Under the pieces are notes generated by a model. The model did no database searches. It was not told where the DNA came from and saw only the letters and a program-made list of their open reading frames with translations. A stretch of DNA of 63,881 nt, counting the filler, from Folioceros fuciformis (lineage: Eukaryota), in assembly GCA_049999805.1 (NCBI GenBank). It is 6 parts of 6 records of this genome, joined end to end, with 100 filler letters (N's around TTAATTAATTAA, not from the genome) between each part and the next. Parts side by side here need not be neighbours in the genome. Positions count along the whole stretch, not along the records: positions 1 to 22,378 come from JBNGIO010005873.1; 5 more parts are not named here. One strand, written 5' to 3'. Below, in pieces: positions 686 through 39,072 of the stretch. Made by a program: the position numbers and the translations under genes. Position 1 is the stretch's first letter, and every line of letters starts with the position of its first letter.

Positions 686-3600
686 ATGACCACTGTATGG
701 CAACCAGACCCGGTGTGGACCCAACAGATAGGTATCGGGGTGCGCACAGGGATTCTATCAGCAGCTCCCGCTCACCAAGACTTAGGAAGTGAACTCCGGG
801 CAGACAAAGCCTCCAGGTGCAGCAGTGGAAGGAACCCAGCGCTTCCAGTCGATAGAACGTGTGTGGGTGGGGACGGGTTGCCCAGCGATGCCCATCGTTG
901 TCGGCAGCAGGAGCACTTGTGGCAACAGTTTTTTCTGGATCCTACCATGTGGTGGGACAACAGACGAGAGAAGAGGAGCTCCCGTTCCCCTGACTTCCGG
1001 CGTAAGGGGTCAGGAGAGGTGCTGTGGTTGAACAACATGTTTAAGCCAGCGTGGGTTGATGAGCAGCTCATGTGCATGGATATGCAGATGGGACATGGTG
1101 CCTCTCCTTCCGAGTCCAGCACTCCGGATAATCCTGAACCTAGGATGTGGGCAACATCGGAAATTGGCATCGTTACTGCTGTTACCGTGAGCACGTTATG
1201 TAAGCAGGGGAGACTTTCTGAGGCCGTTGGAGCCCTGGAATCTCTGTCGCAGACAGCCTCTGCCATTTCCCGATCTCTGCTTTAGACTGTGCTGAAACTG
1301 TGTATAGCAAAGAAGGATTTGGTTGTGGGGCGACGAGTTCATCACCTCAGTGTCAAATTTGGGTTCGAGTCGAATGCGTACTTGGGGAACCACATTGTGC
1401 GCATGTATGCATGTGGAGGTAGGCTAGAGGAGGCCATGGATGTGTTCACCAGAGTAAAGAAACCGGATGCCTTCCTGTGGTCTTCCATAATCTCCGCATA
1501 CGCTAAGCATGGGAAACCGAATGAGGCCGTCCAACTGTACCATGCGATGCGTAGGTCAGGGGTTGAAGCGGATGCCCACGTTTTTGTATCTGCCCTTCAA
1601 GCTTGTGCATTTGCCGGCGATTTGGAATCTGGCAAGAAACTGCACTGTGATGTGGCGCAAAATGGCATGGCTACCAACTTGTTTGTTGGCAACTGCCTGG
1701 TGGACATGTATGGAAAATGTGGCAACATGAAAGATGCACGCCACGTTTTTGACACTATGGCTACAAAGGATGTGGTGACATGGACAGTGCTGATTGCTGG
1801 GTATGCAAAATGTGGCGATCTGGAAGCTGCACGTCAGATATTTGACAGCATGAAGAAAAAGAATGTGGTGACATGGAATGCCCTAATAGCTCGGTATGCC
1901 CAGCAAGGGCTGGGACGTGAGGCGCTTCTTCTGTATGAGCAGATGGAGAAGAAGGGCCTTATCTTGGCTGACCATTTCACTTTTCGTCTCCTTCTGAAGG
2001 CCTGTGCAAGCACGGGTGCCTTCCAGAAGGGCAGGCAGCTGCACTCACAGATTGTGGAAAGGGGTCTGCTGGATGACGTAGTGCCTGGTGGACGTGTATG
2101 CAAAATGTGGTAAACTGGAAGATGCACGCCAGGGATTTAACAGCATGAACAGAAAGGATGTGGTTACATGGACAGCTATGATAGCCGGGTATGCGGAGCA
2201 AGCCCTCAGTCGAGAGGCGCTTGTTCTGTATGGACAAATGGAGGAAGCGGGCCTTATTTTGGCTGATCATGTTACTTTTGCTTGCCTGTTGAAGGCCTGT
2301 GGAAGCACTGGCGCCCTACAGAAGGGCAGGCAGCTGCACTTACAGATTGTGGAGAAAGGACTGCTAGATGACAAAATGGTGGGGACCTGCCTGGTGGACA
2401 TGTATGCAAAATCTGGTGCACTAGAAGATGCACGCCAGGTTTTTGAAAGCTTAGCTACAAAGGATGTGGTGACATGGAACGCCCTGATAACTGGGTATAC
2501 ACAGCAAGGACTCGGCCACGAGGCACTTGCTATTTATGAACAAATGGAGCACGACGTCTTGCTTGTGGCTGACGATGTCACCTTCGCTTGCCTTCTCAAG
2601 GCCTGTGCGAATTCTGGTGCCATACAGAAGGGCAGGCAGCTGCACTCTCAGATTCTCAAAAGAGGATTGCTGGGCAACGTAGTGTTGGGCAACTGCCTCG
2701 TGGACATGTATGCAAAATGTGGCAAACTGGGGGCTGCACGCCAGGTTTTTGGCAGCTTGACCACAAAGAACGTGGTGACGTGGACCGCCCTAATATCTGG
2801 GTATGGTGCTTGTGATGAAGGTCACAAGGCACTAGCTTGTTTTGAAGAGATGTTAGCTGCTGGCGTTCTGCCTAATGAAGCAACGTTAACTTGCCTTTTA
2901 GTAGCATGCAGTCATGGGGGACTGGTCACTGAGGGTCTCAAGTACTTCGATTCCATGGCTGAACAGTATAACATCAAACCTACTATTGAGCATTGCATTT
3001 GCATGATTGACCTTCTTGGGCGTGCAGGCCACTTAGAAGAGGCGGAGAAGATGCTAATTTCATGTGAGGGCCATAATAATGTCGTGGGGTTGACTTCTTT
3101 GTTGAATGCCTGCAAAAGCCACGGGGATATAGACAGGGCGGTGTGGTGTTTTGAAAACATTGTTAGGCTGGATCCTCAAAGGGCGTCTGCCTATGTGCTC
3201 ATGGCCAATGCGTACGCAGACGCAGGTAGGTGGAGTGATGTTGACAGGATTGAAACACAGAGAATAGCAGCAGGAGCTAACAAGAAACCTGCAGTGGCGA
3301 CCATTGAGGTGAACAAGCAGATACATCGATTTCTGGTGGGTGATAAAAGAGAGGATATTGCGCTGAAGGTAGAGAGCACGAATGCTCGTCTGAAGCACGA
3401 AGGGGGCCATGTACCAGAGACGAAGTTGGTGCTGAAGACACTTTCTGAAAAGGGAAAAGGAGGATGGGCTTTGTGGGCATGCTGAGAAGTTAGCTCTGGC
3501 GTTCGGTCTCTTGAACACTCCGAATGGCACACCTCTGGTGGTGACTAAGAATCTACGCATGTGCAGTGACTGCCACAGTTCCACGCAGATCATGTCAAGG

Positions 3601-3687
3601 CTTGAACAGAGAGATATTGTTGTAAGGGATGGGTACCGGGTGCATCGGTTTGCAGCGGGTTCTTGCAGTTGTAAGGGTCGACTGTGA
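686..3687 (+). pseudogene. Disrupted PDF-motif/PLS-PPR/E/DYW:KP (GRP-like) gene
   Basis: Colinear with the intact paralog at 7548-9944. Lesions: in-frame TAG at 1283-1285 (TGC/TAC in paralogs), an ~11-nt deletion near 2083 (frameshift) and a +1 G near 3454 (frameshift just before CGHAEK). The repaired frame ends ...HRFAAGSCSCKGRL* at 3687. Confidence 0.88.
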
Positions 3688-6058
3688 GAATAATGAAGGA
3701 CGGCCGTGCTCAAGTGTGTACCCCAAAGAGTATCGCTTTCTTTTCCTGCGGGTGAATGTGCCGGCTGGAGTTCATCCCTATCCAAGCTGGGACATGGACG
3801 GACAAGCACAGTCCGTGTTTGTTGGCTCATTTGGTGGTGAGGATGCCGTGCTGGACTGGTGTGGCACGGCCCCTACGCTCCTGCTCTCCCATGCGCTTGT
3901 TTATTTCTGAGGTTTCATAGGAGCCTTGGTATCTCGAACCTCAGCTCCCTCTCTGTGGCCTCTCAGGAGATGAGTCAGGTAGCACCTCCCGCATGCTTCT
4001 TTTCCTCCATGCGTGCTCATGTATTTGCTCTTTGTCTGTTTCTTCCACCGCGTCTTCTTCCTTTCTCTGCATGTCTTCCTTCTTCGGGCTCCTCGTCTTC
4101 CCACCTGCTGTCAATGGGGGATGTGGATGTAAGACCAAGCGACAGTGGCAGGAATTTCAGCTACCCGACAAGCAAGCGCAGATTCATCCTTACAGATCTG
4201 CATTCCCAGATAGAAAGTCTCCCTCCCCAGCAATCTACCTCTCTTCCACCATGCTGCTCCTTCTATCACATCAAGGCAGGTTCTGCCTTCTACTACCCAT
4301 CCCCTCTCAACACGTCCCACCTTTGCAGGTTAAACCCCTTTACACCACCAACCCCCTCCCTCTGGTCCCCGCTTAAGACACAACTGCAGATCTGACTCGT
4401 TGCCCTACCCAGCGTATCCTCCCCCTGTCCCGTCTCCCTCACCTACCCTTCTCTTTGCTGAACTCCTCATCCCGCGCTGTAAAGACCCACAAGCCACACC
4501 CTGTTTTTCCGTGTAGATTAACTCATCTTATTTGGATGTTGTGGATGCACGACTTAGGATTTCATGCGTAGCAACGGGGTCTGGGGGATAGAGTACTGTT
4601 GGGTGGGGTGATCATCGCATCCTCAACCGGCCCCAGAGCTCAGAACATTGTAAGAGGCGTTTTGGGTGTGGGCAGTAGAGAGTAAGAAGAATAGGGTCAG
4701 GCATCTTAGCCATACGACACTAAAAAGTCATGCCTGAACCTCTCATTGTTCCGGTGCTTGCTGTAGGTCTCAGCATCTAGAGTGTCAGTGCTGAATCCAT
4801 CAACCTGATGACTGTAAGCTTTCAACTTTTGTGAGATTCAAGTTCACGCTTCTTTAGGAGGCTCCTTCTCTAATTCTGTGGGTGTGTCACTTCGTGCAGG
4901 CAATGTGTGCGTGGGATACCAACAAGATAAGGTGTAACTTGGATTCCTGCTTTCCTCCAGTGGCTGGCATAGTCAGCCGGTGGTCAACTAGTTTGCCGGA
5001 TTGTCTTGCAGCCATGTATGTGCTTCCCCACCTTCTCTCTATCAACGAAGCTTGGTCCAGGATAATGTATACTCATGAGACAGCCAGCCTGCGTCAGAAA
5101 TTCCAGGGCTTCAACCTTCCCAGTAAAGTTCCGTGCCGACACAACGTGTTCATTCATGAGGTAGACCCATCTGTACATCCAAAGAACAGAGATGCTCGTC
5201 CACCCAAGCTGGATTAAACGAGCTGTTTAACCACAGGATCTTCCCGAAGGATGTACACTTGTGAGCAGCAGTTAGGGAGGATTGCGAAGGTTGGTTTCCA
5301 TGATCTATTTTTTAGTGTGCTCTGACTGGTTCTAGGAGTTTCAAAACATTCCTAAGAGGGCTAGTTATGCTGTTTACAGATTGAAGTAATGGGCGAGCTT
5401 TGCCACGAAAGAAGAGAAATGGGCCAAGGGCATGGTATACAAATTGAAGTGATGGACGAGGTTTGCCATGAAAGGAGATGAGAAGTAGATCCGCGAGAAA
5501 TTGATCAGGCCGGTAGGTTTGGACCCAGTCCTTCCCACAGTATCCATTCTCGGGGTTTCTTTCGCCTCCTACATGTCCGCCACTTCCTTGGCCCTATCTG
5601 CCAACTCAACTGCAAGCACACCTCTACTGCGAATCTTCGCTGTCGGGTGGTCTTGAGGGAATTTTCGGGGCATCCTCCGGGCCGGCCTGCCCAATGAAAT
5701 CATATCTCCGAAGTTGGGCACTTGGATGATCAGCATTTGGCGATTGGTATTCGCAGATGCAAGGACCCGGCAACAGGTAGTCTACATTTCCGCAACGTCA
5801 TTAGGCTTAGAAGTTCAAACGCAAAAGAATTTCTACGGTCCATGCCTGGCTACTGCCTATATCAGCCATGGTGGGGAGCGCGTTGTACCGACCCTCCTCT
5901 TCCCTTCCCTGGCTTGACCGTTCCCCTCTCGTAGATTGCACATTTGGAATGACCCTGACAGACACTGTGCGGAGCTCTCGCGTGTTGCAACATGTATCCG
6001 GCGGAGGGAATTCGCAGGAACTGTGAACTTTTCCTAGGCTCGTTTCCTTTCGTTAGAG

Positions 6059-6793
6059 GTCATGCCATCTCCACTCAGCCACTGGCAACAGAACTAGAAG
6101 AGGGTCCGGGTGGAAACGAGCCTGGGGTCGGTCCCCTTACCGAGGGGTATTCGGTTTCGAGGAACAGCATCGGGTTCCAGGTGAGTCTGCTGGTCCTCGG
6201 GTTTCGAAATGCCGGCAATAGGTCGAACACGTTCCTGCTTTGGGCCTTCCTTCATCGTGCGGAGGAGCAGTTGTAACCGTAGGATGAATTGTCTGGTGGT
6301 GAAGCAGCTACTGAAGAAGTCGGGATGGAAGGAGGGCTCAGGCCTTGGAGCAGCAGAGCAGGTTAGAGAACTTTCTGCGCCACAGAGGCTTGTGGGTGTT
6401 CGAACTTGGTCTGCTTCAAACCGTTTCTCAAGGGGGCAGAGTGGACTGGAGTTGTGCGTTACTGGTTGCAGGGAATTCTCACTCCCTTACAGCCTCAAAT
6501 CAAAATTGGACGGGAGGGTATAGGATCATCTACTGATCATACTCGAGACACGTTTGATTCAACGCCGCCACGGAGCCGCAAGGTTGGTCTGTCCTCGCAA
6601 CTCTTGACTGCAAAGCTCTTGCTTCTTGTTCTGACTTCGAGACGGGTGAGGAGCGGCCGCTCTCCAGAGACTGAAGAATGATAAGGCGAAGCGGTCCAAG
6701 GGATCAAGGAAGCGATTAAGAAATGCTGTGGATGACGAAATGGGGATGACACCATCGCAGCGAGATATCGATTACAGGACACACTTCTCGTAA
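6059..6793 (+). CDS. G-patch domain protein (spliced; 5' end not resolved)
   Basis: Exons joined at GT-AG introns (..6180 | 6308-6361 | 6472-~6582 | last exon to TAA at 6793) give SRNSIGFQ-LLKKSGWKEGSGLGAAEQ-GILTPLQPQIKIGREGIGS, a G-patch consensus, followed by a basic C-terminal tail. Confidence 0.7.
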
Positions 6794-7547
6794 GGATAAA
6801 TGTCTCATGTCATAAGAAATTTTTGGCCTCAACGACGAGCTTCATGAACAAAACCGTAAGCCATTATTGGATGTTTAGCATTCTTTTTTCCCTTTCTTCT
6901 TCTTTTTTTCTGGTTTGTTGATTTATGAATATATCCCCTTAACACATGGTGGTTGTACGTGGGAAGGAATTTCAGTACGACTCAATTCCAACTGGCCCAT
7001 GTCCCAACAAGCAGCAAGGATAATGGGCAGCTAACTCCAAGAAAACGGGGATCTTATATTTGTATTATTTAGCGAAATTTTGACATCAGCAGTTCCATTT
7101 TGAATATGCTTGATGTGTATATATTCTAATTTTATTATTTTAATTGGATATAAAAATTCTAAGAAAATAATATAGATAGATATTCATTATGAACAAATCC
7201 TACATAAGAAGCAAAATTCCATACACACAACACGAAGCAGTGTCACGTATTACCATACAACTGTGCACTGAAAAGTGACGAATGGCCCACCACGAGATCG
7301 GTATTGTATAGACCTTACACAGGCAAAATCTTGCCGAATATTTGGGTGAAAAAAGAGAAACCTCCCATCAGTACAGGGTGTGTCCAAACCATAGAAGCCT
7401 CTGATTTTTTTTGGGATCGAGGAGAGAACTGCTTGATCGATCTCCATGGTGGTAAGGCCATGCATGGTTGTAGGTGCACGGTGTTTGAGCGACCTGCCAT
7501 AGCTTGTTGTTGGGATCCCTGAATCTTCCGACAGGGATCCCCGAAAG

Positions 7548-9944
7548 ATGGTCACAGTGTGGCTACCGGACACGTTCTGGATCCAACAAATTGGTGTGTG
7601 CACAGGAATTCTACGAGGAAATCTATGTCACTTCACTTCAGCGAGTCAGGCCGTTGCACACAACCGAGCCTCCAGGTATGGCAGTGGAACGAGGGCGGCA
7701 CTACCACTGTCGAGGAGTTTTGTGGGTGGGGACGAGTCTTTCGATGATTCTCGTCGACGGGAGCAGGAGCACTTGTGGCAACAATTTTTCCTAGACCCTA
7801 CCATGTGGTGGGACAACAGACGAGCTCACAAGGGCTCCCGTCCGCCTCATTTCCGGCGGAAGGGTTCCGGCCAGGTACTGTGGTTGAACAACGTGTCTAA
7901 GCCTGCGTGGGTTGATGAGGAGCTCGTTTCCTTGGATACGCAGATGGGTTGTGGTGGTGCTTCTCGTTCGGAGTTGGGCTCTCTGGATAAGCCTGAACCT
8001 GGCAGGCGTGAGGGGTCGGTAGAGGGCGTTGTTACGGGTGGGACTGTGAGCACGTTATGCCAGCAGGGGAAGCTCTCTGAGGCCGTTGGAGCGCTGGAAT
8101 CTCTGGCGCAGACAGACTCTGCTGTTTCTCTGTCTTTGTTGTGCACTGTGCTGAAGCTGTGTACAGCTAAGAAGGATTTGGTTGTGGGGCGGCGGGTTCA
8201 TGATCTCTGTGTCAAGCTTGGGTACGAGTCGAATGCATACTTGGGTAATCATATCTTGCGCATGTATGCAGGTACAGGTAGGCTACGGGAGGCCATGGAT
8301 GTGTTCACCCGGGTAGGCAAGCCAGATGTGATCACGTGGGGTTCCATGATCTTTGCGTATGTTAAGCAGGGGAAACCTGATGACGCCATACAACTGTACC
8401 ATGAGATGCGTAGGTCAGGAGTTCAGGCGAATGGTCACGTCTTCGCAGCTGCGCTACAAGCTTGTGCAGTTGCTGCAGACTTGGAGTCTGGCAGAAAAGT
8501 GCACTGTGATGTGCTGCGCAGTGGTATTCAGTCTGACTTGGTTCTTCACAACTGCCTGGTGGACATGTATGCAAAATGTGGTGAGCTGAAAGTCGCACTC
8601 CAGGTTTTTGACAGCATGGACACAAAGGATGTGGTGACATGGACTGCCCTGATATCTGGGTATGCAAAATGTGGTGCACTGAAAGAAGCTCGCCATCTTT
8701 TTGAAAGCATGGACACGAAGAATGTGGTGACATGGAATGCCTTGATTGCTGGGTACGCAGAGCAAGGACTTGGACACGAGGCGCTTGTTCTGTATGGACA
8801 AATGGAGCAGGAGGGCCTGATTGTGGCTGACCATTTTACTTTTGCTTGCGTTCTGAAGGCCTGTGCAAGCACTGGTGCCGTACAAAAGGGCAGGCAGCTG
8901 CACTCACTGATTGTCGAAAGAGGGCTGCTGGATAACGTGGTGTTGGGCAACTGCCTCGTGGACATGTATGCTAAATGCGGCAATCTGGAAGCTGCAAGGC
9001 GGGTCTTTGACAGCTTGGCCACAAAGGATGTGGTAACCTGGAATGCCCTGATATCTGGGTACGGGACATGTGATGATGGTCTCAGAGCACTAGCTTGTTT
9101 TGAGGAGATGTTAGTTGCTGGCGTTCCGCCTGATGGAACTACTTTTACTTGCCTTCTAGTAGCATGCAGTCACGAGGGACTAATCCAGGAGGGTCGCAAC
9201 TACTTTGATGCCATGGTCGAACAGCATGGCATCAAACCTACTGTTGAGCATTACACCTGCATGATTGATCTTCTTGGGCGTGCAGGCCATTTGGATGAGG
9301 CTGAGAACATGCTATTATCATGCGGAGCCCAAAGTGATGTTGTTGGGTTGACATCTCTGTTGAATGCCTGCAAAAGTCACGGGGATGTAGAGAGGGCAGC
9401 ACGGTGTTTTGAAAACATTGTTAGGCTGGACCCTCAGTGGGCATCTGCCTATGTGCTCATGGCCAATGCCTATGCAGATGCAGGTAGGTGGAGTGATGTT
9501 GACAGGATTGAAACACAGAGAATGGCAGCAGGAGCTAACAAGAAACCTGCCGTGGCGACCATTGAGTTAAATAAGCAGGTACACAGATTTCTAGTGGGAG
9601 AAAGTAGAGACGATATTGCTCTTCAGTTAGAGAGCACGAATGCACGTCTGAAGCAGGAAGGGGGCCATGTACCACAGACAAAGTTGGTGTTGAAGGCACT
9701 GTCTGAGAAGGAAAAGGAGGATGCGCTTTGTGGGCATGCCGAGAAGTTAGCTCTGGCATTTGGTCTCTTGAACACTCCGAGTGGCACACCTCTGGTGGTG
9801 ACCAAGAATCTACGCATGTGCAGTGACTGCCACAGTTCCACACAGATCATGTCAAGGCTTGAACAGAGAGACATTGTTGTAAGGGATGGGTACCGTGTGC
9901 ATCGATTTGCAAATGGTGGTTGTAGTTGCAAGGGTCGACCGTGA
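7548..9944 (+). CDS. Intact PLS-class PPR protein with N-terminal OSB-like PDF motif, E1/E2 and DYW:KP 'GRP' domain (candidate U-to-C RNA editing factor)
   Basis: 798-aa intronless ORF with P-L-S (and SS) repeats. It has KKPAVATIE in place of the PG box, CGHAEKLA, KNLRMCSDCH and a C-terminal CSCKGRP. Confidence 0.93.
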   Translation: MVTVWLPDTFWIQQIGVCTGILRGNLCHFTSASQAVAHNRASRYGSGTRAALPLSRSFVGGDESFDDSRRREQEHLWQQFFLDPTMWWDNRRAHKGSRPPHFRRKGSGQVLWLNNVSKPAWVDEELVSLDTQMGCGGASRSELGSLDKPEPGRREGSVEGVVTGGTVSTLCQQGKLSEAVGALESLAQTDSAVSLSLLCTVLKLCTAKKDLVVGRRVHDLCVKLGYESNAYLGNHILRMYAGTGRLREAMDVFTRVGKPDVITWGSMIFAYVKQGKPDDAIQLYHEMRRSGVQANGHVFAAALQACAVAADLESGRKVHCDVLRSGIQSDLVLHNCLVDMYAKCGELKVALQVFDSMDTKDVVTWTALISGYAKCGALKEARHLFESMDTKNVVTWNALIAGYAEQGLGHEALVLYGQMEQEGLIVADHFTFACVLKACASTGAVQKGRQLHSLIVERGLLDNVVLGNCLVDMYAKCGNLEAARRVFDSLATKDVVTWNALISGYGTCDDGLRALACFEEMLVAGVPPDGTTFTCLLVACSHEGLIQEGRNYFDAMVEQHGIKPTVEHYTCMIDLLGRAGHLDEAENMLLSCGAQSDVVGLTSLLNACKSHGDVERAARCFENIVRLDPQWASAYVLMANAYADAGRWSDVDRIETQRMAAGANKKPAVATIELNKQVHRFLVGESRDDIALQLESTNARLKQEGGHVPQTKLVLKALSEKEKEDALCGHAEKLALAFGLLNTPSGTPLVVTKNLRMCSDCHSSTQIMSRLEQRDIVVRDGYRVHRFANGGCSCKGRP

Positions 9945-11717
9945 GAATAATGAAGGACTGGCCGTGCTCGGAATAGTGAAGGACTCGCTATGCTCAGGTG
10001 TGCGCAAGAGACTGTTGTTTCTCTTGGCATCAAGTGTGCTTCCTTGAACTCTATCCCTGTCAAACTGAGAGATGGACATGGGTCGCCGACAGTGACGCAC
10101 CTCTTGTCATAAGAGAGACGGTCAATGAATCCCGTACTTCACATACGTACTGTGAAGAAAGGGAGCTCAATCGTGAACAGAGCCCACGTCTTGTGGACAG
10201 CCGGGGATGTGTGAAGAAGTTGTCCAATGAAGAGAGGGCCCTTGCTAGCGTGAAAGGTACGCTCTGTGAAAAGCTTTGATGCAAGCCTTTCATCAACCGT
10301 CACATCCGTATGTGACGGACTTGGTGCAGCGGGACTTGCTTACGGATGTGACGGGTGATGAAAGACGTGGTACCAGGTCCAGATAGGCAGCAGGCATCCT
10401 GTACCTTGGTTGTTTTTCCCACGGACATGAAGTTCAAGGTGGGACGCCTTTCCCCGAAGATGATGCAGCTTCATGGCCAAACCCCTCTGTCCCCTGAAGG
10501 CCGGGGAAATTCAAAGAACCTGACTTGCTTCACGAGGTACCCCGCACGCAACTTCTTACAGTGTCAGTGGCAAAGCTGTTCTGAAAATGTACCATCCTCA
10601 CCACGTCCTCATGCCATGATTCCGTCATTGGGAACAGCCCTGACTTTCCAGACGTGGAATCCCAAACTGGATTCAAAAAGTTTTACACAAGTGTGTCAAA
10701 CGGAGAAGGAAGAGGAAGGAAGATTACTCAGACCACTTGCCTGTTTCTACCTGCAAGGACTGTCTTACGTTGCAGAGCCTTCTACCAGTCTATGACAAAA
10801 GTAGGAATAGTTGGAGTCGTCTCCCTGCAGAATCCTATGAACGTCTAGTTCAATGGCTTCACACGAATGTGTTGTCTGTTCTGCCGGCGAGCTCATGCCT
10901 CCGCACGAACTCGCCGCAGTGCCCAGCCAATAATGCTAGGAGAAACGTCTCCTGCTTTTCGGCAGACCTCGCTACCGACTTGTGAAACGATGCAACCATG
11001 CTTGATGCTGCTTGCGCCGTCTGCACCCTTCCATGCTTGCACTGTTCCCTGGGCCCCCCTGCTTCCAACCATCATGGATGACTTGGCTTCGAGGAGCACC
11101 CCAAGAACTAAGGAGAGCTTGTGCTCCTCGAGACTCAGAGCCTTTGTTCTCTAACAGTGCTGCCTGCTCTTGGACATGCACGAGCCGGCAAGGTCCAACA
11201 GCTCACACCGTTCCACAGTCCAGTCGACTTAAGTTATTCTGCAACCCAAGAGAGCAGCAAATGTTCAACCTCTGCACATAAACATGGATTAGGACGTGCT
11301 ATAGCTATGGGCTGCAGGTTTTTCAGACATGAATGACATGCAAGCCTCTCGGCGAGGTATCCTTGGCCCCTTATATACAATCTGTACACTGCAAAAGATC
11401 TTGCCCGAAGGCTGAAAATTCGAGGGTCAAAAGCACACAAACCCAGCACTTCAAGATCATCGTGTCTGTCCCATGTGTCCTTTTGTGGCACAGTTAAGGC
11501 CGATGCACACCTTGCAGGTGACAAGAGGGAATGCAGTTAGAAATTCAGGGAAAGAGCCATGACAGCTCACAAGGCTGATACGACTTCCGTAGCAGCACAC
11601 ATACATGAGAGGCAGGAAGTTATTTAACGAACTCCACCCCAGGACTTTTCTGCCTGACCTACTACAGAAGCTGCCATTGATTATTGTCAGGTCGAATACC
11701 GAGAAGTCTATCCTGAT

Positions 11718-17132: not shown

Positions 17133-19206
17133 ATGACGGCCTACATCGGCAAGTACGCTGGTACTCTTCTGGCTCAAATTCCTGCATTTGTGTCTTTCAA
17201 TTGTGCGCCTGTTGTCCGACTACGGGACTTGTACCGGATTGCGACATTGCTTTTTGCCGAATGTCTTTCCGCAGAATTTTGGTGACGCTACGCTTGTAGA
17301 TGTGACTTTTTCTAACTGTGAGGGATTGCTGGTAGCCTTGTGTGATGGTCTATCAGCCGAAACGTCGTCGTTGTGAGGATCTGCTGCCAGTGCTTGCGGG
17401 GTTCTGACGTAGTGGATTGTGAATGCCATCCGCCCGTTGCGAATGGCGGAACATTTAGGGGCTTGTTGCATCCTTCGGTTACTTCTCAATTCATGCTCCC
17501 AAGAGTGTGCGTCCCTTGCTCCCGTGGTTCAGTTTGCACAGCTCCTTCGTGCAAGTAGAATTCAAGCCAATATGTTGAGTCTTGTCGTCGAGGCTGTTCC
17601 AAGTGGAACCGCTGTCCAGATTTTGCCATAATAAGCATTGGAATTTTGTGCAACATTCATCCACCAATTCCGTTTTCAGCTCTACACAGATGCTTTTCGT
17701 GGAGGAAGGCAATCTGTTGTTCCGGCTTCCACTTCTGAAGGAGTGTCACCTTTCGTATCTGACTGGAGCTGATTTTCACGACGTTCAGGATCCCGTATTG
17801 CTTGCTTCTGCCGATCTACAAGAATAACTCATCAACATGGTTAGAGGAGGCCGTAAGACGCCGGTCCATTTGATTCGCTTCCCTGTAATGACATAGGGCT
17901 GCATTGAAAATGAGCCTGATTCCTGTTTGAAGAACAGCTGTTCAAGATGCGCACTGAAAATTGCATTAGGAGACGCCGCAGCGTTTTCGAGCTCATATTC
18001 TTGAGTCTAGCATAAATTTGTCGAAAATTCTGTAAACTGCTAAGGGGTTTGATCGTGCGCTGCTAGTGTACAGCCATAGCTGGCAGCTGTGACTGGTGTT
18101 CCCAAGTTTAGGCTCAAGTTTCTGAACGTGGGATTCTTCTGTTCGTTCGACAAACAGATGACCTCATCCGAACCGCCCGCTATATTGCCACTCCCGGGAA
18201 AGGGATCTTGGCAGCGGACGAGTCCACAGGGACGATTGGGAAGCGGCTGGCGAGCATCAATGTTGAAAACGTGGAGGCCAATCGGCAAGCACTGCGTGAG
18301 CTGCTCTTCACAGCCCCTGGCTCACTGCAGTACCTGAGTGGAGTCATCCTGTACGAAGAAACTCTCTTTCAGAGAACAGCCGCGGGTGTTCCTTTCGTGA
18401 ACATCCTCAACGATGCAGGAGTCATCCCAGGGATCAAGGTGGACAAGGGTGTCGTGGCCCTAGCCGGCACTGATGGCGAGACCACCACCCAGGGTCACGA
18501 TGGCCTCGGGGAGCGTGCAGCGAAGTACTACGAGGCTGGTGCAAGGTTTGCAAAGTGGAGAGCTGTCCTGAAGATCGGCGCAAAGGAACCAAGCGAGCTC
18601 TCTATTCAGCAGAACGCGCAAGGGCTTGCCCGTTACGCTATCATCTGCCAGGAGAACGGGCTTGTCCCCATCGTGGAGCCTGAGATTCTGGTGGACGGGC
18701 CTCATGACATCCACAAGTGTCAGGAGGTGACAGAGCGGGTTCTGGCAGCCACTTACAAAGCCTTGAACGAGCACCATGTACTTCTAGAGGGAACCCTCTT
18801 GAAGCCGAACATGGTAACCCCTGGTTCAGAGGGTCCAAAGGTTGAGTCGGAGGTTATAGCCAAGGCTACAGTTCAGGCTCTGCAAAGGACAGTGCCTCCT
18901 GCTGTTCCCGGGATTGTTTTTCTGTCCGGTGGTCAGAGTGAGGAGCAGGCCACGGTGAACTTGAATGCTATGAACAAGCTAAATACCGTCAAGCCGTGGA
19001 CGCTGTCTTTCTCCTTCGGCCGTGCCCTCCAGCAGACTACCCTGAAAACCTGGGCTGGAAAGAAGGAGAATGTCGCTGCTGCGCAAGAGGCATTCCTTGC
19101 CAGGTGCAAGGCCAACTCAGAGGCTACTCTGGGCAAGTACGGTGGTGATGCTGGTGCGGTTGCTGGCTCAGCAGAGTCTCTTCACGTTAAAGGTTACGTG
19201 TATTGA
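17133..19206 (+). CDS. FBA: Fructose-bisphosphate aldolase class I, cytosolic (2 exons: 17133-17160, 18158-19206)
   Basis: [39 protein letters not shown]...[15 protein letters not shown]...SLHVKGYVY*; no transit peptide. Confidence 0.96.
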
Positions 19207-28418: not shown

Positions 28419-31400
28419 TCAGTGTACCTTGAAACCGACTCTTCGCTTGGGTGCCTCCAAGTCCTTCACGGCTTTGGTCAGTCTCCAGAGCTGTGAGTAG
28501 ACGTCGTGGCGGTTTGGGTGGTCTTGGTCTTCCACAAGGAAGCTGTAGACCCTGTAGTCGACCTCAATCCAGGTCCTCCCGGGTGTTTTCTTCAGTCCTG
28601 CAGCCTTCATTTTCCGCCGGATTTCGGCCTCCTCTTCCTGCTTTTCCGCCAGTCCATACAAGCTTGACATGATGACATATGCGGCACTGTTCGTCGGGTC
28701 CAGTTCCATGATGCGCTCAAAAGCGTGCTTTCCCAGCTCCACCTCGAAGTACGTTCGACAAGCGCCCAGCAGTGCCATCCAGACATTGACATCTGGGTTA
28801 GGGACCAGATGGTCGATGAAGTCGGTTGCCACATCCAGGTATCCTGCACGACTGAAAAGTCCTACCATGCATCCGTAGTGGGCTGATGTGGGTTCAACTC
28901 CGTACTCCTTGGACATGGAGTCAAAGAGCTCCCAGCCCTCGGGCAATAGGCCCGCATGGCTGCAGGCGTTCAGCACACACAGGAAAGTGACATGATCCGG
29001 CTTGACGCCTGCCTCCTGCATTTCCTTCAACAGGCGAAGCGCATCTTCACCTGACCCATGCCGGGCATGGCCACCAATGAATGCCGTCCAAGTTACCACA
29101 TCCCTGGTCGGTAGTCCATTGAAGACCCTTAGTGCCACATCCATTCTTCCGCACTCGGCATACATGTTGACAAGTGCGCTTCCTAAGACTTCATCAATTT
29201 CTATGCCACTTTTCTTGAGCAGGCTGTGTGCAAGCATGCCTTGAGAGACAGCTGCGATAACAGTACAAGCCTTAATGATGGTCAAGTACGTCACTTTGTC
29301 TGCCATATTCAAATTCTCTTCTTGCATCTCTGTCCAAACGTCAATAGCCTCCTTATAAAGCTCTTGCTGAACATACCCACGGACAAGGGCATTCCATGAA
29401 ACTGTGTTCTTGTCTGGCAATTTCTCAAAGATTTTGCGAGCCTCATCTAGACTGCCACATTTCGCATACATGTCCATGAGGGTGTTGGCAACAGTCACAT
29501 CCAGTTCAAATCCACTCTCAGCTACCTGCGCATGAATCTCCTTACCCTGATCCAGGCCCCCACCTGTAGCCTTGAGGATGCTCAAAAAAGTCACCTCAGT
29601 TGGCTTGATGCCCTGCTGGAGCATCCTCTGAAAAAACTCCAGGGCTTCTTGCTTGCGCCCGTGCTGAGCATATCCAGCAATTATTGCATTCCATGATACT
29701 GCGTTCTTCTCAGGCATTTGCTCAAACACATTGTTCGCTTCTTCTAAGCTGCCACATTTCGCATACATGTCAATAAGCGTGCTCCCCACCTCTACGTCCA
29801 GGTCATGTCCATTCTCAGTCACCTGGCGATGAATCTGCCTGCCTTCATCCAGCGCACCAATGCTGCTGCAGGCCTTGAGCGCATTGACATACGTAATTTG
29901 GTTCAGCTCAACGCCCTTTTCTTGCATTTCCTTGAACAGTTCTAGAGCTTTGTCGCCCTGCCCATGTTGAGCGTATCCTCCGATCATGGCAGTCCATGAA
30001 ACAACATCCTTGTTTGTCAGCAAGTCAAACGATTCTCTTGCCTCATCCAAGCCCCCACACTTGGCATACATGGCAACAAGAGCGGTACTGATTGCTGAAT
30101 CCAAATCAACTCGACTAGAGATTATCTGAGCATGGATCTCCTTTCCCTGCTCCAAAAACCGAGGGGTATTACAAGCTCTGAGGGTGCTCAGAAACGTGAC
30201 AGCATTTGGTTCCATGCCCTGCTCTTGCAACTCCTGAAATAGCCGGAGAGCTTCTTGGCTCTCCCCCTGTTGCGCGTACCCTCCTATCATTGCATTCCAC
30301 GACACTATGCTTTTCCGATCAAGTTCATCAAACACATCCCTTGCATCGGTCAGGGTCCCACACTTGGAATACATGGATATAAGGCTGTTCCCAATCGCAG
30401 TATCTGTTCCTAGCCCAGAATCAATAATCTGCTGGTGGATCTGCTTCCCTTCTGCCAGAGAGCCTGTATTTGCACAAGACCTCAGAATGCTCAAATACGT
30501 AATCTTGTTCGGTGCTACTCCCTGCCTTTGCATCTCCTTGAAAAGATCCAAAGCTTCCTTATAAAGCCGAAGCTCAGTGTAGCCTGTGATCATCACAGTC
30601 CACGATACCACGTCACGCCTTGACAGTCCATCAAACAGCTTGTGAGCCTCGGCCATGCTGCCGCATTTAGCATACATGTTCATAAGGGCATTCACCACAA
30701 TCTCGTGTGACTCCAACCCCGACTCCGATACGTCCCCATGGACCTCCCGGCCGACATCCAGTGCCGTCGTGCTGGCACAAGCCTTCAGCACAGCCACGTA
30801 AACATGACTGCTCGGGCGAACCCCCGACCGTTTCATCTCCTTGTATAACTCGACTCCCTGCTCCCCTTGCTCAAGGTTAGCATGTGCCGTAATAATCCCG
30901 TACCAAGAATACTCATCCGGCTGGCTGATCTTGCGGAACGCCCTAACCGCATCATCCAAGCTGCCGAGAGATGCATACAACCGGATTAACGTGTTCCACG
31001 CGTAAGACTCCAACTCCAGTCCCCTAGCCGTCACTGTTGACTCCAACAACCTTCCATGAGCTAGACTCTTCCTCTTGAAACACTCCTCCGCCAGCTTAGT
31101 CAAGAGGGAGGCAGGAATGTCTACTCCCAGCTCCCCGATGGTGTCCAACGCATGAAGAGCCTCATTCAACTGCCCTTCCTCCTGCAGCCTGCTCAGATTG
31201 GCAACATGGTCCACGGATTCCACACTACCCTCCAGTTTGGTCACCGCAGACAGAAACCGGATACCATCCCTGCTTCTAGGCAGCTGGCTCCCCCGAGCAG
31301 CTGGATTGCTCCTCCCCTGGACACAGATTTCCCAAGCCGCCCCGGGCTTGGGCGCAGGGCACGGAAATCTGCGACACATGGCCCTTCCAACCCTGGAATT

Positions 31401-31448
31401 TCCAGTCCATCGCGCCGCCGCCGCGAGACGTAACCCTGCTTCCCACAT
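28419..31448 (-). CDS. PLS-class PPR protein, E+ type (PG box, no DYW deaminase), organelle-targeted
   Basis: 1009-aa intronless ORF with an Arg/Ala-rich presequence, many PLS triplets, E1/E2 and KKTPGRTWIEV...DQDHP. It stops before any HxE/CxxC. Confidence 0.93.
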   Translation of the reverse strand: MWEAGLRLAAAARWTGNSRVGRAMCRRFPCPAPKPGAAWEICVQGRSNPAARGSQLPRSRDGIRFLSAVTKLEGSVESVDHVANLSRLQEEGQLNEALHALDTIGELGVDIPASLLTKLAEECFKRKSLAHGRLLESTVTARGLELESYAWNTLIRLYASLGSLDDAVRAFRKISQPDEYSWYGIITAHANLEQGEQGVELYKEMKRSGVRPSSHVYVAVLKACASTTALDVGREVHGDVSESGLESHEIVVNALMNMYAKCGSMAEAHKLFDGLSRRDVVSWTVMITGYTELRLYKEALDLFKEMQRQGVAPNKITYLSILRSCANTGSLAEGKQIHQQIIDSGLGTDTAIGNSLISMYSKCGTLTDARDVFDELDRKSIVSWNAMIGGYAQQGESQEALRLFQELQEQGMEPNAVTFLSTLRACNTPRFLEQGKEIHAQIISSRVDLDSAISTALVAMYAKCGGLDEARESFDLLTNKDVVSWTAMIGGYAQHGQGDKALELFKEMQEKGVELNQITYVNALKACSSIGALDEGRQIHRQVTENGHDLDVEVGSTLIDMYAKCGSLEEANNVFEQMPEKNAVSWNAIIAGYAQHGRKQEALEFFQRMLQQGIKPTEVTFLSILKATGGGLDQGKEIHAQVAESGFELDVTVANTLMDMYAKCGSLDEARKIFEKLPDKNTVSWNALVRGYVQQELYKEAIDVWTEMQEENLNMADKVTYLTIIKACTVIAAVSQGMLAHSLLKKSGIEIDEVLGSALVNMYAECGRMDVALRVFNGLPTRDVVTWTAFIGGHARHGSGEDALRLLKEMQEAGVKPDHVTFLCVLNACSHAGLLPEGWELFDSMSKEYGVEPTSAHYGCMVGLFSRAGYLDVATDFIDHLVPNPDVNVWMALLGACRTYFEVELGKHAFERIMELDPTNSAAYVIMSSLYGLAEKQEEEAEIRRKMKAAGLKKTPGRTWIEVDYRVYSFLVEDQDHPNRHDVYSQLWRLTKAVKDLEAPKRRVGFKVH

Positions 31449-32317
31449 CCTGTCCCAGCTCGCCCTGCATCAGCCTGGCATCAGCAGCCTGGCCTTGGAA
31501 GCCATGAACTCGTGCGTACCTCACTCATGTTGCTGCACCACCAGCTCTCCCTCGATAATACGTTCAGGTGACAGATAGCTTAGCCGACCGCATTTGCCTC
31601 CTTCTCCCGCTTCCAGTCTGCTGCAAATTTCGCAACATGGATCAGGAGGGAACACAAACGTAGCCGCCGGCCTGCAGCCCCAACTCGTTCCCTAATCAGA
31701 AAGTCATTCGTGGGTGTAGATGTCTGAGAAATTTCATCTTTATTAAAGTTTGTTACGTAAATGCTTGCCGACTGCAAACGTTCATGTCGAACGAACAGTG
31801 TGACAAGAGACCGGCGCCTACTCGATCTATGGGTTGGAATTTGGTGCTAGAAATTCGTGGAAATAGGTCGGACAAGTCGCCGCCCTTACTGTAGCACAGA
31901 GTAACCTAATAGCTGCTTTGGCATCCACAATGCCTCAAGGGTTGTAAGGTGAACCTTCAGCATTCAGTGCAACTTTGACCAGGTCCATTGTGTACCTCTG
32001 ATTCAGAGATCGTATCTCTTACACCTGGAGGACAGAAATTTGACCCCGTACACAACCTTCGCTACATATGTGTGTCGTGTAAACCTGAGTCATCGACAGG
32101 TACGCGTATCTCGGAAGACATCCAACCAGGGAGCCAGCAATACCTGTGGACCTTTTATTGAAAGATGTAGGTCTCGTAAACCTGAGAGTATCAAATCAAA
32201 GCATATCCAACGCACTTGTAATCAAGAGGACAAGGATTCAACCCCCGTAAACCTCTTCTTCGGAGGTTTCTATCTCAGAAGTCTAAGAAACCAAAACAAT
32301 CCTTAGGTCGGATTCTT

Positions 32318-34202: not shown

Positions 34203-37086
34203 TCAGGGCACCGAAAGCTCCGACTCTTTTATCTGCTCAGTTACCTCCTTCAACATGGCATAGATCTGTTTCCTTTGTATGTGGTTCCTGTCTTCCACAG
34301 AAAAAACGTGGACCTCGCTGTGCAGTTCCATCCAGCTGCGACCAGGCTCCTTTTTCGCACCGGCCTTCTGCATTTGTTTTCGAGTCTCAGCAGCTTTCTC
34401 CAACATGCCCGCGGCAGTGTAGATGTTTGACAAGAGAACATATGCTGCACCCGCTGTGCGATCTACCTGCAGAATGGTGTCAAAACATTGTCGTGCAACC
34501 TCCACATTGGTGTATATTTGGCAGGCCCCTAGCAAAGACATCCATACCACAATATCTGGTTGAGATGGAATTTCGCTGATCAAGGCTAAAGCCTCGGCGA
34601 AGTGCCCGGCACGACCAAGGAGGCCAACGATGCAGGCATAATGCTTCATCCCTGGAGCGATTCCAAAATCATGAGACATGGAACGGAATAGTTGGATGCC
34701 CATGTGTAATAAAGATGCGTGCCGACACGCTGAGAGCAGAGAAACAAAGATGACAGCATCTGGCTGCATGCCCTCAGCTTGCATTTGCTGGTATAGTTCA
34801 AGTGCTTCCTCTGCACGTCCATCCTGAGCATATCCTGCAATCATAGTGCTCCACGACACCAATTCTCTGATTGGCAAACTATTGAAGACTTCTCGAGCAT
34901 CTTTCAGACTTCCACACTTTGCATACATGTCAATCAGCGTGCTACTAATAGGCAAGTCTGACTCCAATCCGTACTCGATCACGAGCGCATGAAGCACCTT
35001 ACCCTTGTCCAAAGCTGCAATGCTGCAACAGGCCTTCAGAGTGCTTAGGAGAGTGATCCTGCTTGGCTGCAAGCCCTGTGCTTGCATTTGCTCAAACAGC
35101 AATAGAGCTTCCTGACCATTTCCGCACCGCGCATATCCTGCAATCATGGCAGTCCAAGACGTGACATCTCTTTGTTGCAATCTGTCAAACACTCGGCGTG
35201 CTTCCTCTATCCTGCCACAGTTGGCATAGAAATCAATAAGGGTGCTGCTAATATAGCTGTCCAATGGCATACCACTTTCCTTAAGATAGACATGGAGGCG
35301 TTCACCGTCCAGAAGAGCTGCTTTGTTGGAACATGCTTTGAGGACGCAGGCCACAGTGAACTTGTCTGGCAGCACTTCTTGCTGCATATGCTCAAAAAGA
35401 CGGAGGACTTCCTGGTCATCCCCAGACTGCACATATCCTGAGATCATTGCATTCCATGACACCAAGTTCCTTGTCTCCAACTGATCAAACAAACTCCGAC
35501 CGTCCTCCAGCCGCCCACATTTTACGTACATGTCGAGGAGTGCACATGCAACGAATAAATTTGAATTGAGACCTCCTTCACTGACCTGGGCATGGAGAAG
35601 CTTGCCTAGTTCTAACGCCTCTGTGCAAGCACATGCCTTTAAAAGGATCAAGAAAGTAGCCCTGTTTGGACAATGTCCGCTGCTGAGCATGTCGAAGAAA
35701 AATTGCAGAGCGGACTCAGGTTCACCGTGCTCAACATAACCCCCAAGCAAGACATTCCATGTCACCAAGTCCTTTGTCACCATTCGATCAAATACTTCCC
35801 TGGCATCTTCCAAGCTCCCGCATTTGGCATACATGTCCATGAGAGTGCTGCCTACGAAGACATCACATTCAAGCTGGAGTCTCAATGTGAGTTTATGAAG
35901 CAACCTGCCCTGATCCAGAGCTGTTGCATTCGAACACGCCTTCAGACTGCTGACAATTGTAACCTTGTCTGGCTGCATACCCCCCTGCTGCATTTGCTCA
36001 AGCAAATCAAACACCATTTGACCTTGTCCATATTGCGAGTACCCTGCAATCATTGTATTCCACGTAATCAAATCCTTTTGCAATAAACCGTCAAACACCT
36101 GACGAGCATCCTCCAAGCTTCCACACTTGACATACATATTTATCAGAGTGCTACAGACATGTGCATCCACTTCACGACCAGTCTTAACAATCTGAGCATG
36201 TAGCACTTTGCCCTGATCCAGAGCTGCAATACAAGAGCATGCTTTCAAAGTGCTGGCAAGGGTTACCTTGTCTGGCTCCATACCTTCCACCTGCATCTGT
36301 TGAAACAGTTCCAATGCTTCATGGCCCCATCCATGTTGCCCATACCCTGCAGTCATGATATTCCATGATACCAGATCCTTTATCGCCATTGTGTCAAACA
36401 CGGTTTGTGCATCCCCTAGCCTTCCACATTTTACATACATGTCCATGAGAGCATTCCCAACAAACACTTTCAACTGTAGCCCTCGATCTACAATGTCCGC
36501 ATGAATTGACTTGCCCCACGTCAGAGCTGCAGCTCTTGCACATGCTTTGAGTATAGCCACATAAACTTGGTCATCAGGATTTATGCCAGCTTTTGTCATG
36601 TCAAAGTACAGCAGAACAGCTTGTTCAGCTGAACTATGCTTGCTGTGTGCCAGGACGATGGCAGTCCACGCAAATTTGTCTGGGGTGGCAATCTTGCTGA
36701 ACACTTTACTTGCTTCCCATAGTTCTCTGCAGGAATCGTACATTCGAATTAGATGGCTTCCCAAGTACGGATCAGATTCAAGTCCAGTTTCCTCTATGAT
36801 AGCATGCACTTCCCTGCCAGCTGTCAAGTTTTTCAAGTGAATACAACCCTGTAACAGACGAAACAACAGATTGACGGGAATCGAGATCCTTTGCTGGTGC
36901 AATGCGACCAAACTTCGCAAGGATTTCTCCAGTTCCCCCTCGTCACCAAATCCACCGAAACGTTTCCAAAATTGCGAAGAGCCAACAAAGCCTTCAATGC
37001 TTCCACCCTGGCAAACCCCGGATACCACCTGATTCTGCTTAATGACGGTACCGTCTCCATTCCCTGATGAGACTACAGGACTTGCT
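34203..37086 (-). CDS. PLS-class PPR protein, E+ type (PG box, no DYW); 5' end runs into the gap
   Basis: The frame is open from the gap at 37087 through >940 codons of PLS repeats and E1/E2 to KKEPGRSWMEL...EDRNH; no zinc-binding motifs. Confidence 0.92.
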
Positions 37087-37186
37087 NNNNNNNNNNNNNN
37101 NNNNNNNNNNNNNNNNNNNNNNNNNNNNNNTTAATTAATTAANNNNNNNNNNNNNNNNNNNNNNNNNNNNNNNNNNNNNNNNNNNN

Positions 37187-38925: not shown

Positions 38926-39072
38926 AAACTTAAGAAATAAAATTATGGTGCAAATGAATTGTTTTACAATGTATGTCAAAACGACAAAGCTTTATCTACT
39001 TATGAATACAAAGTGGAAATCATACTCATTATATATATCTCTCAAGCATAGCGACTAGCCTATTAATGGAGG

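Follow-up and report, generated by a model that had tools for sequence, protein, structure and literature searches.

An intact GRP-type DYW:KP gene encoding a PLS-class PPR protein, a candidate U-to-C RNA editing factor

The window, i.e. the whole stretch of 63 881 nucleotides of Folioceros fuciformis DNA that was analysed, contains at 7548-9944 on the plus strand a reading frame that starts with ATG and runs unbroken through 798 codons, as seen in the ORF list and in the translation alike. Its product, 798 aa long, is a PPR protein of the PLS type that has E1 and E2 motifs and closes with a DYW domain of 133 aa; along the plus strand the parts follow one another as PDF motif, PLS PPR array, E1, E2 and DYW:KP (GRP). 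Of the three GRP copies located in the window, this is the only intact one. The features referred to below are:

7548-9944, plus strand: complete intronless coding sequence, 798 codons and a stop (ORF list, translation, Pfam)
7548-7754, plus strand: N-terminal extension, residues 1-69, presumed organelle presequence
7755-7952, plus strand: OSB-type PDF motif, residues 70-135, with the P-D-F signature degenerated to P-H-F (phmmer, BLASTP)
8043-9338, plus strand: PPR array, residues 166-597 (Pfam PPR families; segmentation with positions 5 and last)
9339-9542, plus strand: E1 and E2 motifs, residues 598-665 (Pfam E_motif; segmentation)
9543-9941, plus strand: DYW:KP deaminase-like domain, residues 666-798, 133 aa (translation, Pfam, phmmer, tree, model)
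9543-9566, plus strand: KP box KPAVATIE, replacing the PG box (translation; comparison across 121 proteins)
9735-9743, plus strand: HAE, i.e. H730-A731-E732, predicted zinc ligand and catalytic glutamate (H and E invariant in the 46-row alignment)
9804-9806, plus strand: K753, domain position 88 counted from K666, putative equivalent of Lys88 (invariant in the 46-row alignment)
9819-9830, plus strand: predicted CxxC zinc ligands C758-S-D-C761 (both cysteines invariant in the 46-row alignment)
9933-9941, plus strand: GRP terminus G796-R797-P798, in place of DYW (translation)
686-3684, plus strand: decayed GRP paralog (pseudogene), recovered as tblastn pieces in three frames and ending in GRL
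58889-61633, plus strand: GRP paralog, open frame with an internal deletion (translation)

The PPR families PPR, PPR_1, PPR_2 and PPR_3 of Pfam matched the product with E-values from 1e-33 to 1e-66, and E_motif matched residues 611-673, between S2 and the DYW domain (E 2.7e-14); given these values and an open frame of 2.4 kb, a chance match is not a concern. Segmentation resolved the array into 13 motifs of 29-36 aa each, in the order P?-L1-S1-P1-L1-S1-SS-P1-L1-S1-P2-L2-S2. Judged from its sequence, the product thus is a PLS-class PPR-E1-E2-DYW protein, with a PLS array, E1 and E2, and a DYW fold with two zinc sites. The N-terminal extension contains six Arg, no Lys, eight Ser and six Ala, and is presumed from this composition and its position to be an organelle presequence. 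No family was matched in a Pfam scan of residues 1-175, and the start Met is common to both paralogs in the window.

The translation of 9543-9944 begins with KPAVATIELNKQVHRF, includes CGHAEKLA and VTKNLRMCSDCHSS, and ends with GGCSCKGRP followed by the stop codon. The original prediction had described here an intact domain with a KP box, a shortened SHP region, HAE, CSDC and a GRP end, within a complete gene; translation and phmmer recovered all of these motifs in the places described, the 798 codons are unbroken, and all zinc and catalytic residues are kept. Pfam assigned residues 706-796 to DYW_deaminase (PF14432) with an E-value of 1.9e-33, and a phmmer search against PDB sequences returned three DYW entries, namely the synthetic PPR-DYW protein 9kfx (6.3e-37), DYW1 (7w86, 7e-31) and OTP86 (7o4e, 1.5e-28). 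In both alignments covering the segment, a gap of four residues falls at the SHPQ/SHPE of 9kfx and 7o4e, where the query reads VGESR----DDIA.

In an alignment of 46 rows mixing KP and PG types, the residues H730, E732, K753, C758, C761, H762, H785, C792 and C794 are invariant. K753 and M757, the latter placed just before CSDC in the NLRM context typical of KP, stand at positions 88 and 92 from K666, the same numbering being used for KP domains in PMC11845758 and PMC9478123. From its position and motif context, we infer that K753 is the counterpart of the essential Lys88 of synthetic KP proteins. The site four residues past CxxCH is occupied by Q766 in the query, by T, Q, E and E in the four other GRP rows, and by K in the DRH rows P0005, P0008, P0013, P0016 and P0017. 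If the lysine is correctly matched by the alignment, Q766 fits the loss, reported for GRP proteins in PMC9478123, of the lysine that pairs with the terminal Asp, although the residue is Gln here and is reported there as Glu.

An AlphaFold model of the DYW:KP domain reached a pLDDT of 90.6. In a Foldseek comparison, TM scores ranged from 0.70 to 0.88 across 9kfx, 7o4e and 7w86, with the best value (0.88) for 9kfx_A, an RNA-bound PPR-DYW protein, and 0.74 for 7o4e_A; the predicted fold matches those of solved DYW deaminases.

A tree of 118 DYW tails was computed by a quick IQ-TREE search (LG+G4, SH-aLRT support, no bootstraps), three of the 120 hits with aberrant tails being left out. It is divided by a split with SH-aLRT 98 into a KP clade of 41 rows, which share the HAE/non-DYW character and include the query, and 77 rows on the other side. 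The active site of the KP clade reads HAE in 36 rows, HCE in three, HVE in two and HSE in none; on the other side HSE occurs in 77 of 77 rows and the DYW end in 69. A crude pattern labelled 30 rows as 'KPA', and 28 of these belong to the KP clade. The GRP end is found in five of the 41 rows, which form a single clade including the query (SH-aLRT 98), and the rows ending in GRP and DRH lie together in a clade of 17 rows (SH-aLRT 89). Likewise, among the 121 proteins compared, the nearest relatives of the product end in GRP or DRH. The grouping with PG-type domains that the original prediction had named as evidence against it was therefore not seen, and its assignment of the domain to DYW:KP, GRP subtype, is supported by motifs and tree position together.

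Among the matches listed, the DYW-tail columns were at most 71% identical to any database protein, and over the last 239 residues identity reached 69% at best. A search for orthologs with the PPR tract (residues 160-600) found none among the 120 matches listed, the best identity being 46% (P0007). The ranking of the PPR-tract matches was dominated by long PPR proteins.

Residues 70-135, on which the original prediction was silent, form a single OSB-type PDF motif. The motif is about 50 aa long and follows the pattern W..F..P..WWDNR...PDF(K/R)HK...LW....P.W, to which the query conforms except that the Asp of P-D-F is replaced by His; the Asp is kept in the paralog at 686-3684. A phmmer search of this region against 1.84 billion representatives gave 437 matches at E<=1e-3, many with 2-13 copies, and the named ones include 'protein OSB1, mitochondrial-like' (Populus nigra) and 'organellar single-stranded DNA binding protein 3' (Euphorbia peplus). 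By BLASTP, the region is 43-44% identical over about 60 residues to both PDF repeats of the poplar OSB1-like protein (E 2e-15 and 7e-14), while an ESM Atlas search with residues 68-135 gave no usable match. OSB-type proteins carry one to five PDF copies after an OB-like fold, whereas here a single copy stands at the N-terminus of a PPR protein. Of the 121 PPR-DYW proteins examined, 13 carry the motif, and no description of a PDF-PPR fusion was found in the searchable literature.

The two other GRP copies, also absent from the original prediction, show different kinds of damage. The one at 686-3684 is interrupted in frame by a stop codon at 1283-1285 and shifts frame twice, near 2100 and near 3450. 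In the one at 58889-61633, an L-type PPR motif is joined straight to '...LLNTP...CSDCH...GRP', so that P2 to E2, HAE and the first half of the DYW domain are missing; its PLS triplet is repeated five times with a period of 306 bp, and these tandem units point to unequal crossing-over within the cluster. DNA homology of 7548-9944 to both paralogs is limited to 7523-9969, with 74-89% identity among the copies. Because it stops within 25 nt of the ends of the coding sequence, a retrocopy origin was considered.

The window also contains two E+-type PPR genes, a class reported in PMC13386178 as enriched in hornworts only. These genes and the relatives ending in GRP or DRH are indirect signs of a hornwort host, which the original prediction had considered probable. 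A single-exon aldolase gene at 18112-19206 has a best match of 85%, to a transcriptome, and matches Cryptomeria at 83%, Diphasiastrum at 82% and Marchantia at 81%; seed plants, lycophytes and liverworts match it about equally (78-85%), so that it points to a land plant but to no particular lineage.

Of the 24 sequencing runs listed, three contain at least half of the sampled words, all three from one organism. In one of four runs compared with the window, a contig passes directly from 5287 to 5378, skipping a 90-nt GT..AG interval, and the run therefore probably contains RNA. Exact contigs from the same run lie over 7423-7789, 7909-8088 and 9888-10783, the stretch 7106-7339 has no cover, and intergenic-looking stretches are covered as well. 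The repeat-rich middle of 7548-9944 is represented in this run by paralog-like fragments only.

Positions 5 and last of the PPR motifs gave a code letter for seven of the 13 motifs. The site read from them is 5'-U N N U A U N U U N G N N N [U]-3', i.e. U(-14), U(-11), A(-10), U(-9), U(-7), U(-6) and G(-4) relative to the target. In organelle genomes of hornwort size, 11-45 chance matches to this site are expected, and among about 500 U-to-C sites the expected number of perfect chance matches is 0.03-0.1. The array being short, with seven informative positions, a target cannot be named without the editome of the host. The expectation that the target could be predicted from the gene was therefore borne out as far as these code letters go and was otherwise too optimistic; what the code provides is a putative target motif that is testable but non-unique.

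Taking identity and working jointly, the best explanation, which we consider probable, is that 7548-9944, in a land plant that is most likely a hornwort, is an intact nuclear gene for a PLS-class PPR editing factor belonging to the GRP subgroup of the DYW:KP family. U-to-C editing occurs in hornworts, some lycophytes and ferns. To our knowledge no other pyrimidine transition lacks a reconstituted native enzyme, and the chemistry of this one is still debated. In the working that we propose, the N-terminal extension would direct import of the product into plastids or mitochondria, where the PPR motifs from the first S1 (-14) to S2 (-4) would bind the RNA just 5' of the target with a specificity set by the code; two uninformative N-terminal motifs stand before the first S1 in this putative RNA-binding array. 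E1, E2 and the DYW:KP domain would then put the target uridine at the zinc centre of H730, C758 and C761, where E732 would serve as acid/base in catalysis. By analogy with the work on synthetic KP2, KP3 and KP6, K753 would attack C4 of the uridine, which would thereby be converted into cytidine. The PDF motif might, speculatively, add unspecific affinity for single-stranded nucleic acids.

The literature on KP proteins provides the frame for this proposal. GRP and DRH are the two KP subgroups of hornworts (Ichinose et al. 2022, PMC9478123), and for the GRP subgroup that paper cites Gerke et al. 2020 and Gutmann et al. 2020. In E. coli, U-to-C conversion of about 26% is reported for KP2 and of about 22% for KP3, both of them synthetic GRP designs, with no C-to-U editing, and HAA and AxxA mutants are reported to be dead (PMC9478123). 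The alanine of HAE is described as specific to KP, and M92 as a KP feature (PMC9478123). Synthetic KP proteins are reported to need Lys88 for their U-to-C activity (PMC11845758) and to become C-to-U editors when it is changed (PMC11845758, PMC11332814). For U-to-C conversion to be detected, proteinase treatment has to precede the extraction of RNA (PMC11845758). A model with a Schiff base and a crosslink has been proposed (PMC11332814), and in the current one the lysine is the nitrogen donor and the intermediates are crosslinked (PMC11332814, PMC11845758). In the accessible parts of these three sources, U-to-C activity is demonstrated for synthetic consensus proteins only (PMC11845758, PMC9478123, PMC11332814).

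Three other readings of the locus should be considered. The gene might be an intact but idle young duplicate, copied within the local GRP cluster and heading to a pseudogene, on which no editing site depends. Two of the three GRP copies in the window are decayed, so that the family appears to be turning over and 7548-9944 could be such a duplicate without a fixed target. The stop and two frameshifts in one copy, the loss of P2 to E2 and of half the DYW domain in the other, the confinement of homology to the coding part, and the absence of an ortholog among the PPR-tract matches listed all agree with this. Yet the gene has kept the full set of nine zinc or catalytic residues that do not vary between KP and PG types, and its 798 codons have stayed open while the neighbouring copy gathered three lesions; we regard idleness as unlikely.

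The two remaining readings concern what an active product would do. With its complete HxE...CxxC deaminase centre, it might be a C-to-U or a two-way editor instead of a dedicated U-to-C factor, considering that synthetic KP6 is reported to edit C to U as well, in vitro and in human cells (PMC11845758, PMC11332814), so that the direction of editing does not follow from the DYW:KP type alone, and considering also the effect of Lys88 changes described above. This is made quite improbable by the presence of K753, by the two synthetic GRP designs, which edit U to C without C-to-U in E. coli, and by the KP clade having been reported only from lineages with U-to-C editing (PMC9478123, PMC13386178). 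Alternatively, the PPR array and the PDF motif would suffice for single-stranded nucleic acid binding, and E+-type PPR proteins lacking a full DYW domain are encoded in the same window; the product could thus be a sequence-specific RNA binder that, for instance, stabilizes or processes an organelle transcript and leaves DYW:KP catalysis unused. An unused domain, however, is not expected to keep every catalytic and zinc residue together with the GRP-specific features, and we consider this reading very unlikely. A U-to-C editing factor is therefore the reading that we retain.

With the hornwort GRP proteins and the synthetic KP2 and KP3, 7548-9944 shares the KP box, HAE, NLRM, CxxC, a Lys at position 88, the GRP end, the loss of the lysine past CxxCH, a domain of 133-134 aa and the upstream P2-L2-S2-E1-E2 series. 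Unlike KP2 and KP3, it is a native single gene and not a consensus design, and its N-terminal PDF motif is not mentioned for hornwort GRP proteins or for KP2 and KP3 in the accessible part of PMC9478123. The DRH subgroup of hornworts has the clade, HAE, the KP(A/G)K box and the domain length in common with it, but ends in DRH and keeps both the terminal Asp and the lysine four residues past CxxCH. The DYW:PG deaminases (OTP86 7o4e/7o4f, DYW1 7w86 and synthetic 9kfx) have the same fold, zinc ligands, glutamate, active-site lysine and PLS-E1-E2 arrangement, and differ in having PG instead of the KP box, SHP instead of its deletion, HSE instead of HAE, NLRV instead of NLRM, and DYW instead of GRP at the end.

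The PDF motif of AtOSB1 is reported to be sufficient for binding ssDNA (PMC6963530). It is conceivable, if doubtful, that in native editing factors of early land plants the PDF motif is a working part, acting as an unspecific ssRNA clamp that aids binding or product release, and that its absence could be one reason why synthetic KP designs stall as protein-RNA crosslinks. If this were true, attempts to reconstitute complete U-to-C editing would do better to start from this intact native PDF-PPR-GRP gene than from consensus designs.

The family to which the gene belongs is already described: GRP and DRH are known DYW:KP variants of hornworts, and U-to-C editing is reported for synthetic GRP designs. 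The gene is therefore a sound but unsurprising candidate. For hornwort genomes, PPR repertoires of more than 1,400 proteins are reported (PMC10030945), the GRP subgroup among them, and one further member alone changes little. What it adds is the sole intact copy of three in the window, a short array with a testable, non-unique motif, and a PDF motif found in a minority of the PPR-DYW proteins examined. As an intact native gene of GRP type, it offers a concrete protein to express, to mutate (E732, K753, C758/C761) and to knock out.

The open reading frame at 7548-9944 and its product, called the query below, were annotated as follows:

7548-9944 (+): ATG-started open frame of 798 codons (ORF listing and translation)
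Query protein: PPR families (Pfam, E about 1e-66)
Residues 611-673: E motif (Pfam, E 2.7e-14)
Residues 706-796: DYW_deaminase (Pfam, E 1.9e-33)

The translated 9543-9944 begins with KPAVATIELNKQVHRF, includes CGHAEKLA and VTKNLRMCSDCHSS, and has GGCSCKGRP as its C-terminus, followed by a stop. When compared with the sequences in the PDB, the last 133 residues matched a synthetic PPR-DYW protein (9kfx, E 6.3e-37), DYW1 (7w86, 7e-31) and OTP86 (7o4e, 1.5e-28); in both alignments spanning the segment, the query is four residues shorter where 9kfx and 7o4e carry SHPQ or SHPE. The original prediction had read this region as an intact DYW domain of the KP type (KP box in place of the PG box) ending in GRP. 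Its description proved exact in all details by translation, Pfam and PDB alignments, and the domain was correctly identified within a frame that is open over its 798 codons.

A search of a large protein collection with residues 560-798 gave 960 matches at E ≤ 1e-3 among 3330 candidates, and no protein identical to the query was found in it. Among the best 120 of the 960, which were used for further analysis, the closest matches showed 55-69% identity to the query, and the first matches with a name came from a lycophyte, Diphasiastrum (55%), and a fern, Adiantum (50%), and are of the KP type. Judged by box, HxE, CxxC and terminus, these 120 proteins and the query are of two types, namely KP(A)-HAE with a non-DYW end and PG-HSE with a DYW end. 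A tree of the last 150 residues was calculated from 118 rows (the query and 117 matches, with P0029, P0041 and P0071 omitted for their aberrant tails) by a quick IQ-TREE search under LG+G4, with SH-aLRT as the sole support. It divides into 41 and 77 rows, with an SH-aLRT of 98 on either side. HSE is present in all 77 rows of the larger clade, 69 of which end in DYW, while the 41-row clade has HAE in 36, HCE in three and HVE in two, with DRH termini in ten and GRP termini in five. The query lies in the 41-row, KP-side clade, within a five-row GRP clade (SH-aLRT 98) nested among DRH rows and apart from the 77 HSE rows; therefore, the grouping with PG-type domains that was to count against the original prediction was not what the tree returned. 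Ichinose and colleagues describe two hornwort KP subgroups, DRH and GRP, and report the Ala of HAE as KP-specific (PMC9478123), and the taxonomic restriction of KP domains was confirmed over 364 genomes (PMC13386178). The query is almost certainly a member of the described DYW:KP GRP family, and no new kind.

In a 46-row alignment of KP and PG domains, the nine catalytic and zinc residues (H730, E732, K753, C758, C761, H762, H785, C792 and C794) are invariant. Numbering from K666, K753 is position 88 and the Met of NLRM is position 92, which are the numbers used for the Lys and Met of KP domains (PMC11845758, PMC9478123). Four residues past CxxCH, where PG and DRH domains have a lysine, the query has Q766; the four remaining GRP rows hold T, Q, E and E at this site, and K is kept in the DRH rows. 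This agrees with the reported loss in GRP proteins of both the terminal Asp and its partner lysine (PMC9478123). The AlphaFold model of residues 655-798, built from the 46-row alignment, had a mean pLDDT of 90.6 and a pTM of 0.83. A Foldseek search of the PDB with this model gave nine matches at E ≤ 0.001, including 9kfx_A (TM 0.88, E 5.6e-17), OTP86 (TM 0.74-0.76) and DYW1 (TM 0.70); the other matches are distant cytidine deaminases.

The motifs of the array were segmented in the order P?-L1-S1-P1-L1-S1-SS-P1-L1-S1-P2-L2-S2-E1-E2. In the PPR position-5/last code, N/D stands for U, T/N for A and T/D for G. With the usual alignment, which places S2 at -4, the predicted target carries U(-14), U(-11), A(-10), U(-9), U(-7), U(-6) and G(-4); the P1 motif at -13 (G/N) is ambiguous, and the L motifs are uninformative. 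These seven positions and the edited U would be matched by chance 11-45 times in organelle genomes as large as those of hornworts (sizes as given in PMC6082510), but only 0.03-0.1 times among about 500 known U-to-C sites. Therefore, the original proposal that the target can be predicted holds in that seven code positions are readable, but only against an editome.

The least expected finding was made in the N-terminal part of the protein:

7755-7952 (+), residues 70-135: OSB-type PDF motif (protein search and BLASTP)

No Pfam family was found for this segment. Among 1.84 billion representative proteins it had 437 matches at E ≤ 1e-3, many with 2-13 copies near their C-termini. Four of ten matches looked up were named, including 'protein OSB1, mitochondrial-like' (Populus nigra), 'organellar single-stranded DNA binding protein 3' (Euphorbia peplus) and one Adiantum PPR protein, and BLASTP against both repeats of the poplar protein gave 43-44% identity (E 2e-15 and 7e-14). 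By sequence similarity, residues 70-135 are thus identified as the PDF motif of OSB proteins, which in AtOSB1 reportedly suffices to bind ssDNA (PMC6963530). Pfam assigned PPR to five of 18 matches (out of 150 listed), an SSB domain to one, kinesin to one, a spurious family to one and no family to ten. The motif is present at E ≤ 1e-3 in at least 13 of 121 PPR-DYW proteins (the best 120 matches and the query), a lower bound because many assemblies are N-terminally truncated. Four of the 13 are of the HAE type and nine of the HSE/PG type, and seven of these nine are from Diphasiastrum, Sphagnum and Ceratodon; an Adiantum PPR-DYW protein also carries it. Among the papers listed in literature searches, none described a PPR protein fused to a PDF motif.

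The window is a PPR cluster, in which the following other features were located:

28419-31469 (-): long PLS PPR gene, E+ type, 1016 codons stop to stop
34203-37130 (-): long PLS PPR gene, E+ type, 975 codons stop to stop
18112-19206 (+): cytosolic-type class-I fructose-bisphosphate aldolase, single uninterrupted frame (Pfam, E 1.2e-170)
62720-63583: reverse transcriptase/RNase H fragment, at the end of the window
686-3684 (+): second GRP copy, in pieces in three frames (tblastn with the query protein)
58889-61633 (+): third GRP copy, open frame of 915 codons

Both E+ genes encode an E motif as well as a PG box, and stop soon after it; E+-type PPR proteins are reported as enriched in hornworts only (PMC13386178). 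The aldolase shows 78-85% identity to cytosolic aldolases of many land plants and, being intronless, might be a retrocopy. The GC content is 0.37-0.42 in the block 36000-44000 and about 0.50 elsewhere; this block and the fragment at 62720-63583 are probably transposon remains adjoining the PPR genes. One contig of a sequencing run matched to the window (run X3) links 5287 to 5378, skipping a 90-nt GT..AG interval (5290-5379, +). A spliced gene around 5000-6500 (+), upstream of the PPR gene, is indicated, and run X3 probably contains RNA. The GC content of about 50% and an intron of 90 nt would suit a hornwort genome; with the E+ genes and the GRP- and DRH-ending relatives of the query, they make a hornwort the likely host. 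The aldolase places the host among land plants and no finer.

The DNA homology of the three GRP copies is confined to 7523-9969, with 74-89% identity. The copy at 686-3684 is a pseudogene: its frame is broken by a stop codon (1283-1285) and by shifts near 2100 and near 3450, and its last residues are GRL. Across 78 residues of the DYW tail this copy shows 92% identity to the intact one, and it retains the Asp of P-D-F, which is replaced by His in the intact gene. At 58889-61633, an L motif is joined straight to '...LLNTP...CSDCH...GRP', which is the latter half of the DYW domain; P2 to E2 and HAE are absent. The P-L-S triplet occurs there five times with a 306-bp period, and the internal deletion looks like the outcome of unequal crossing-over within the repeats. 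Beside these two copies, 7548-9944 might also be an idle young duplicate, intact and without function, though this is the less likely reading. Exact contigs of run X3 cover both ends of the gene, and also neighbouring non-coding stretches.

Two further alternatives, likewise less probable, concern the activity of the product, which could be a C-to-U or bidirectional enzyme, or a non-catalytic binder. Substitution of Lys88, the position held by K753, is reported to make KP proteins edit C-to-U, and U-to-C activity to require this lysine (PMC11845758); the GRP-based designs KP2 and KP3 gave about 26% and 22% U-to-C editing in E. coli and no C-to-U editing (PMC9478123). HAA and AxxA mutants are described as inactive (Ichinose et al., PMC9478123). 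Detection of the U-to-C product is stated to need proteinase treatment (PMC11845758), and synthetic enzymes are reported to remain crosslinked to RNA, native fern RNA being without crosslinks (PMC11332814). Extrapolating from the synthetic consensus enzymes, U-to-C editing would be the most likely function of the 7548-9944 product. Taken as a whole, the chain that leads from an intact native GRP-type DYW:KP gene to a candidate U-to-C editing factor appears probable.
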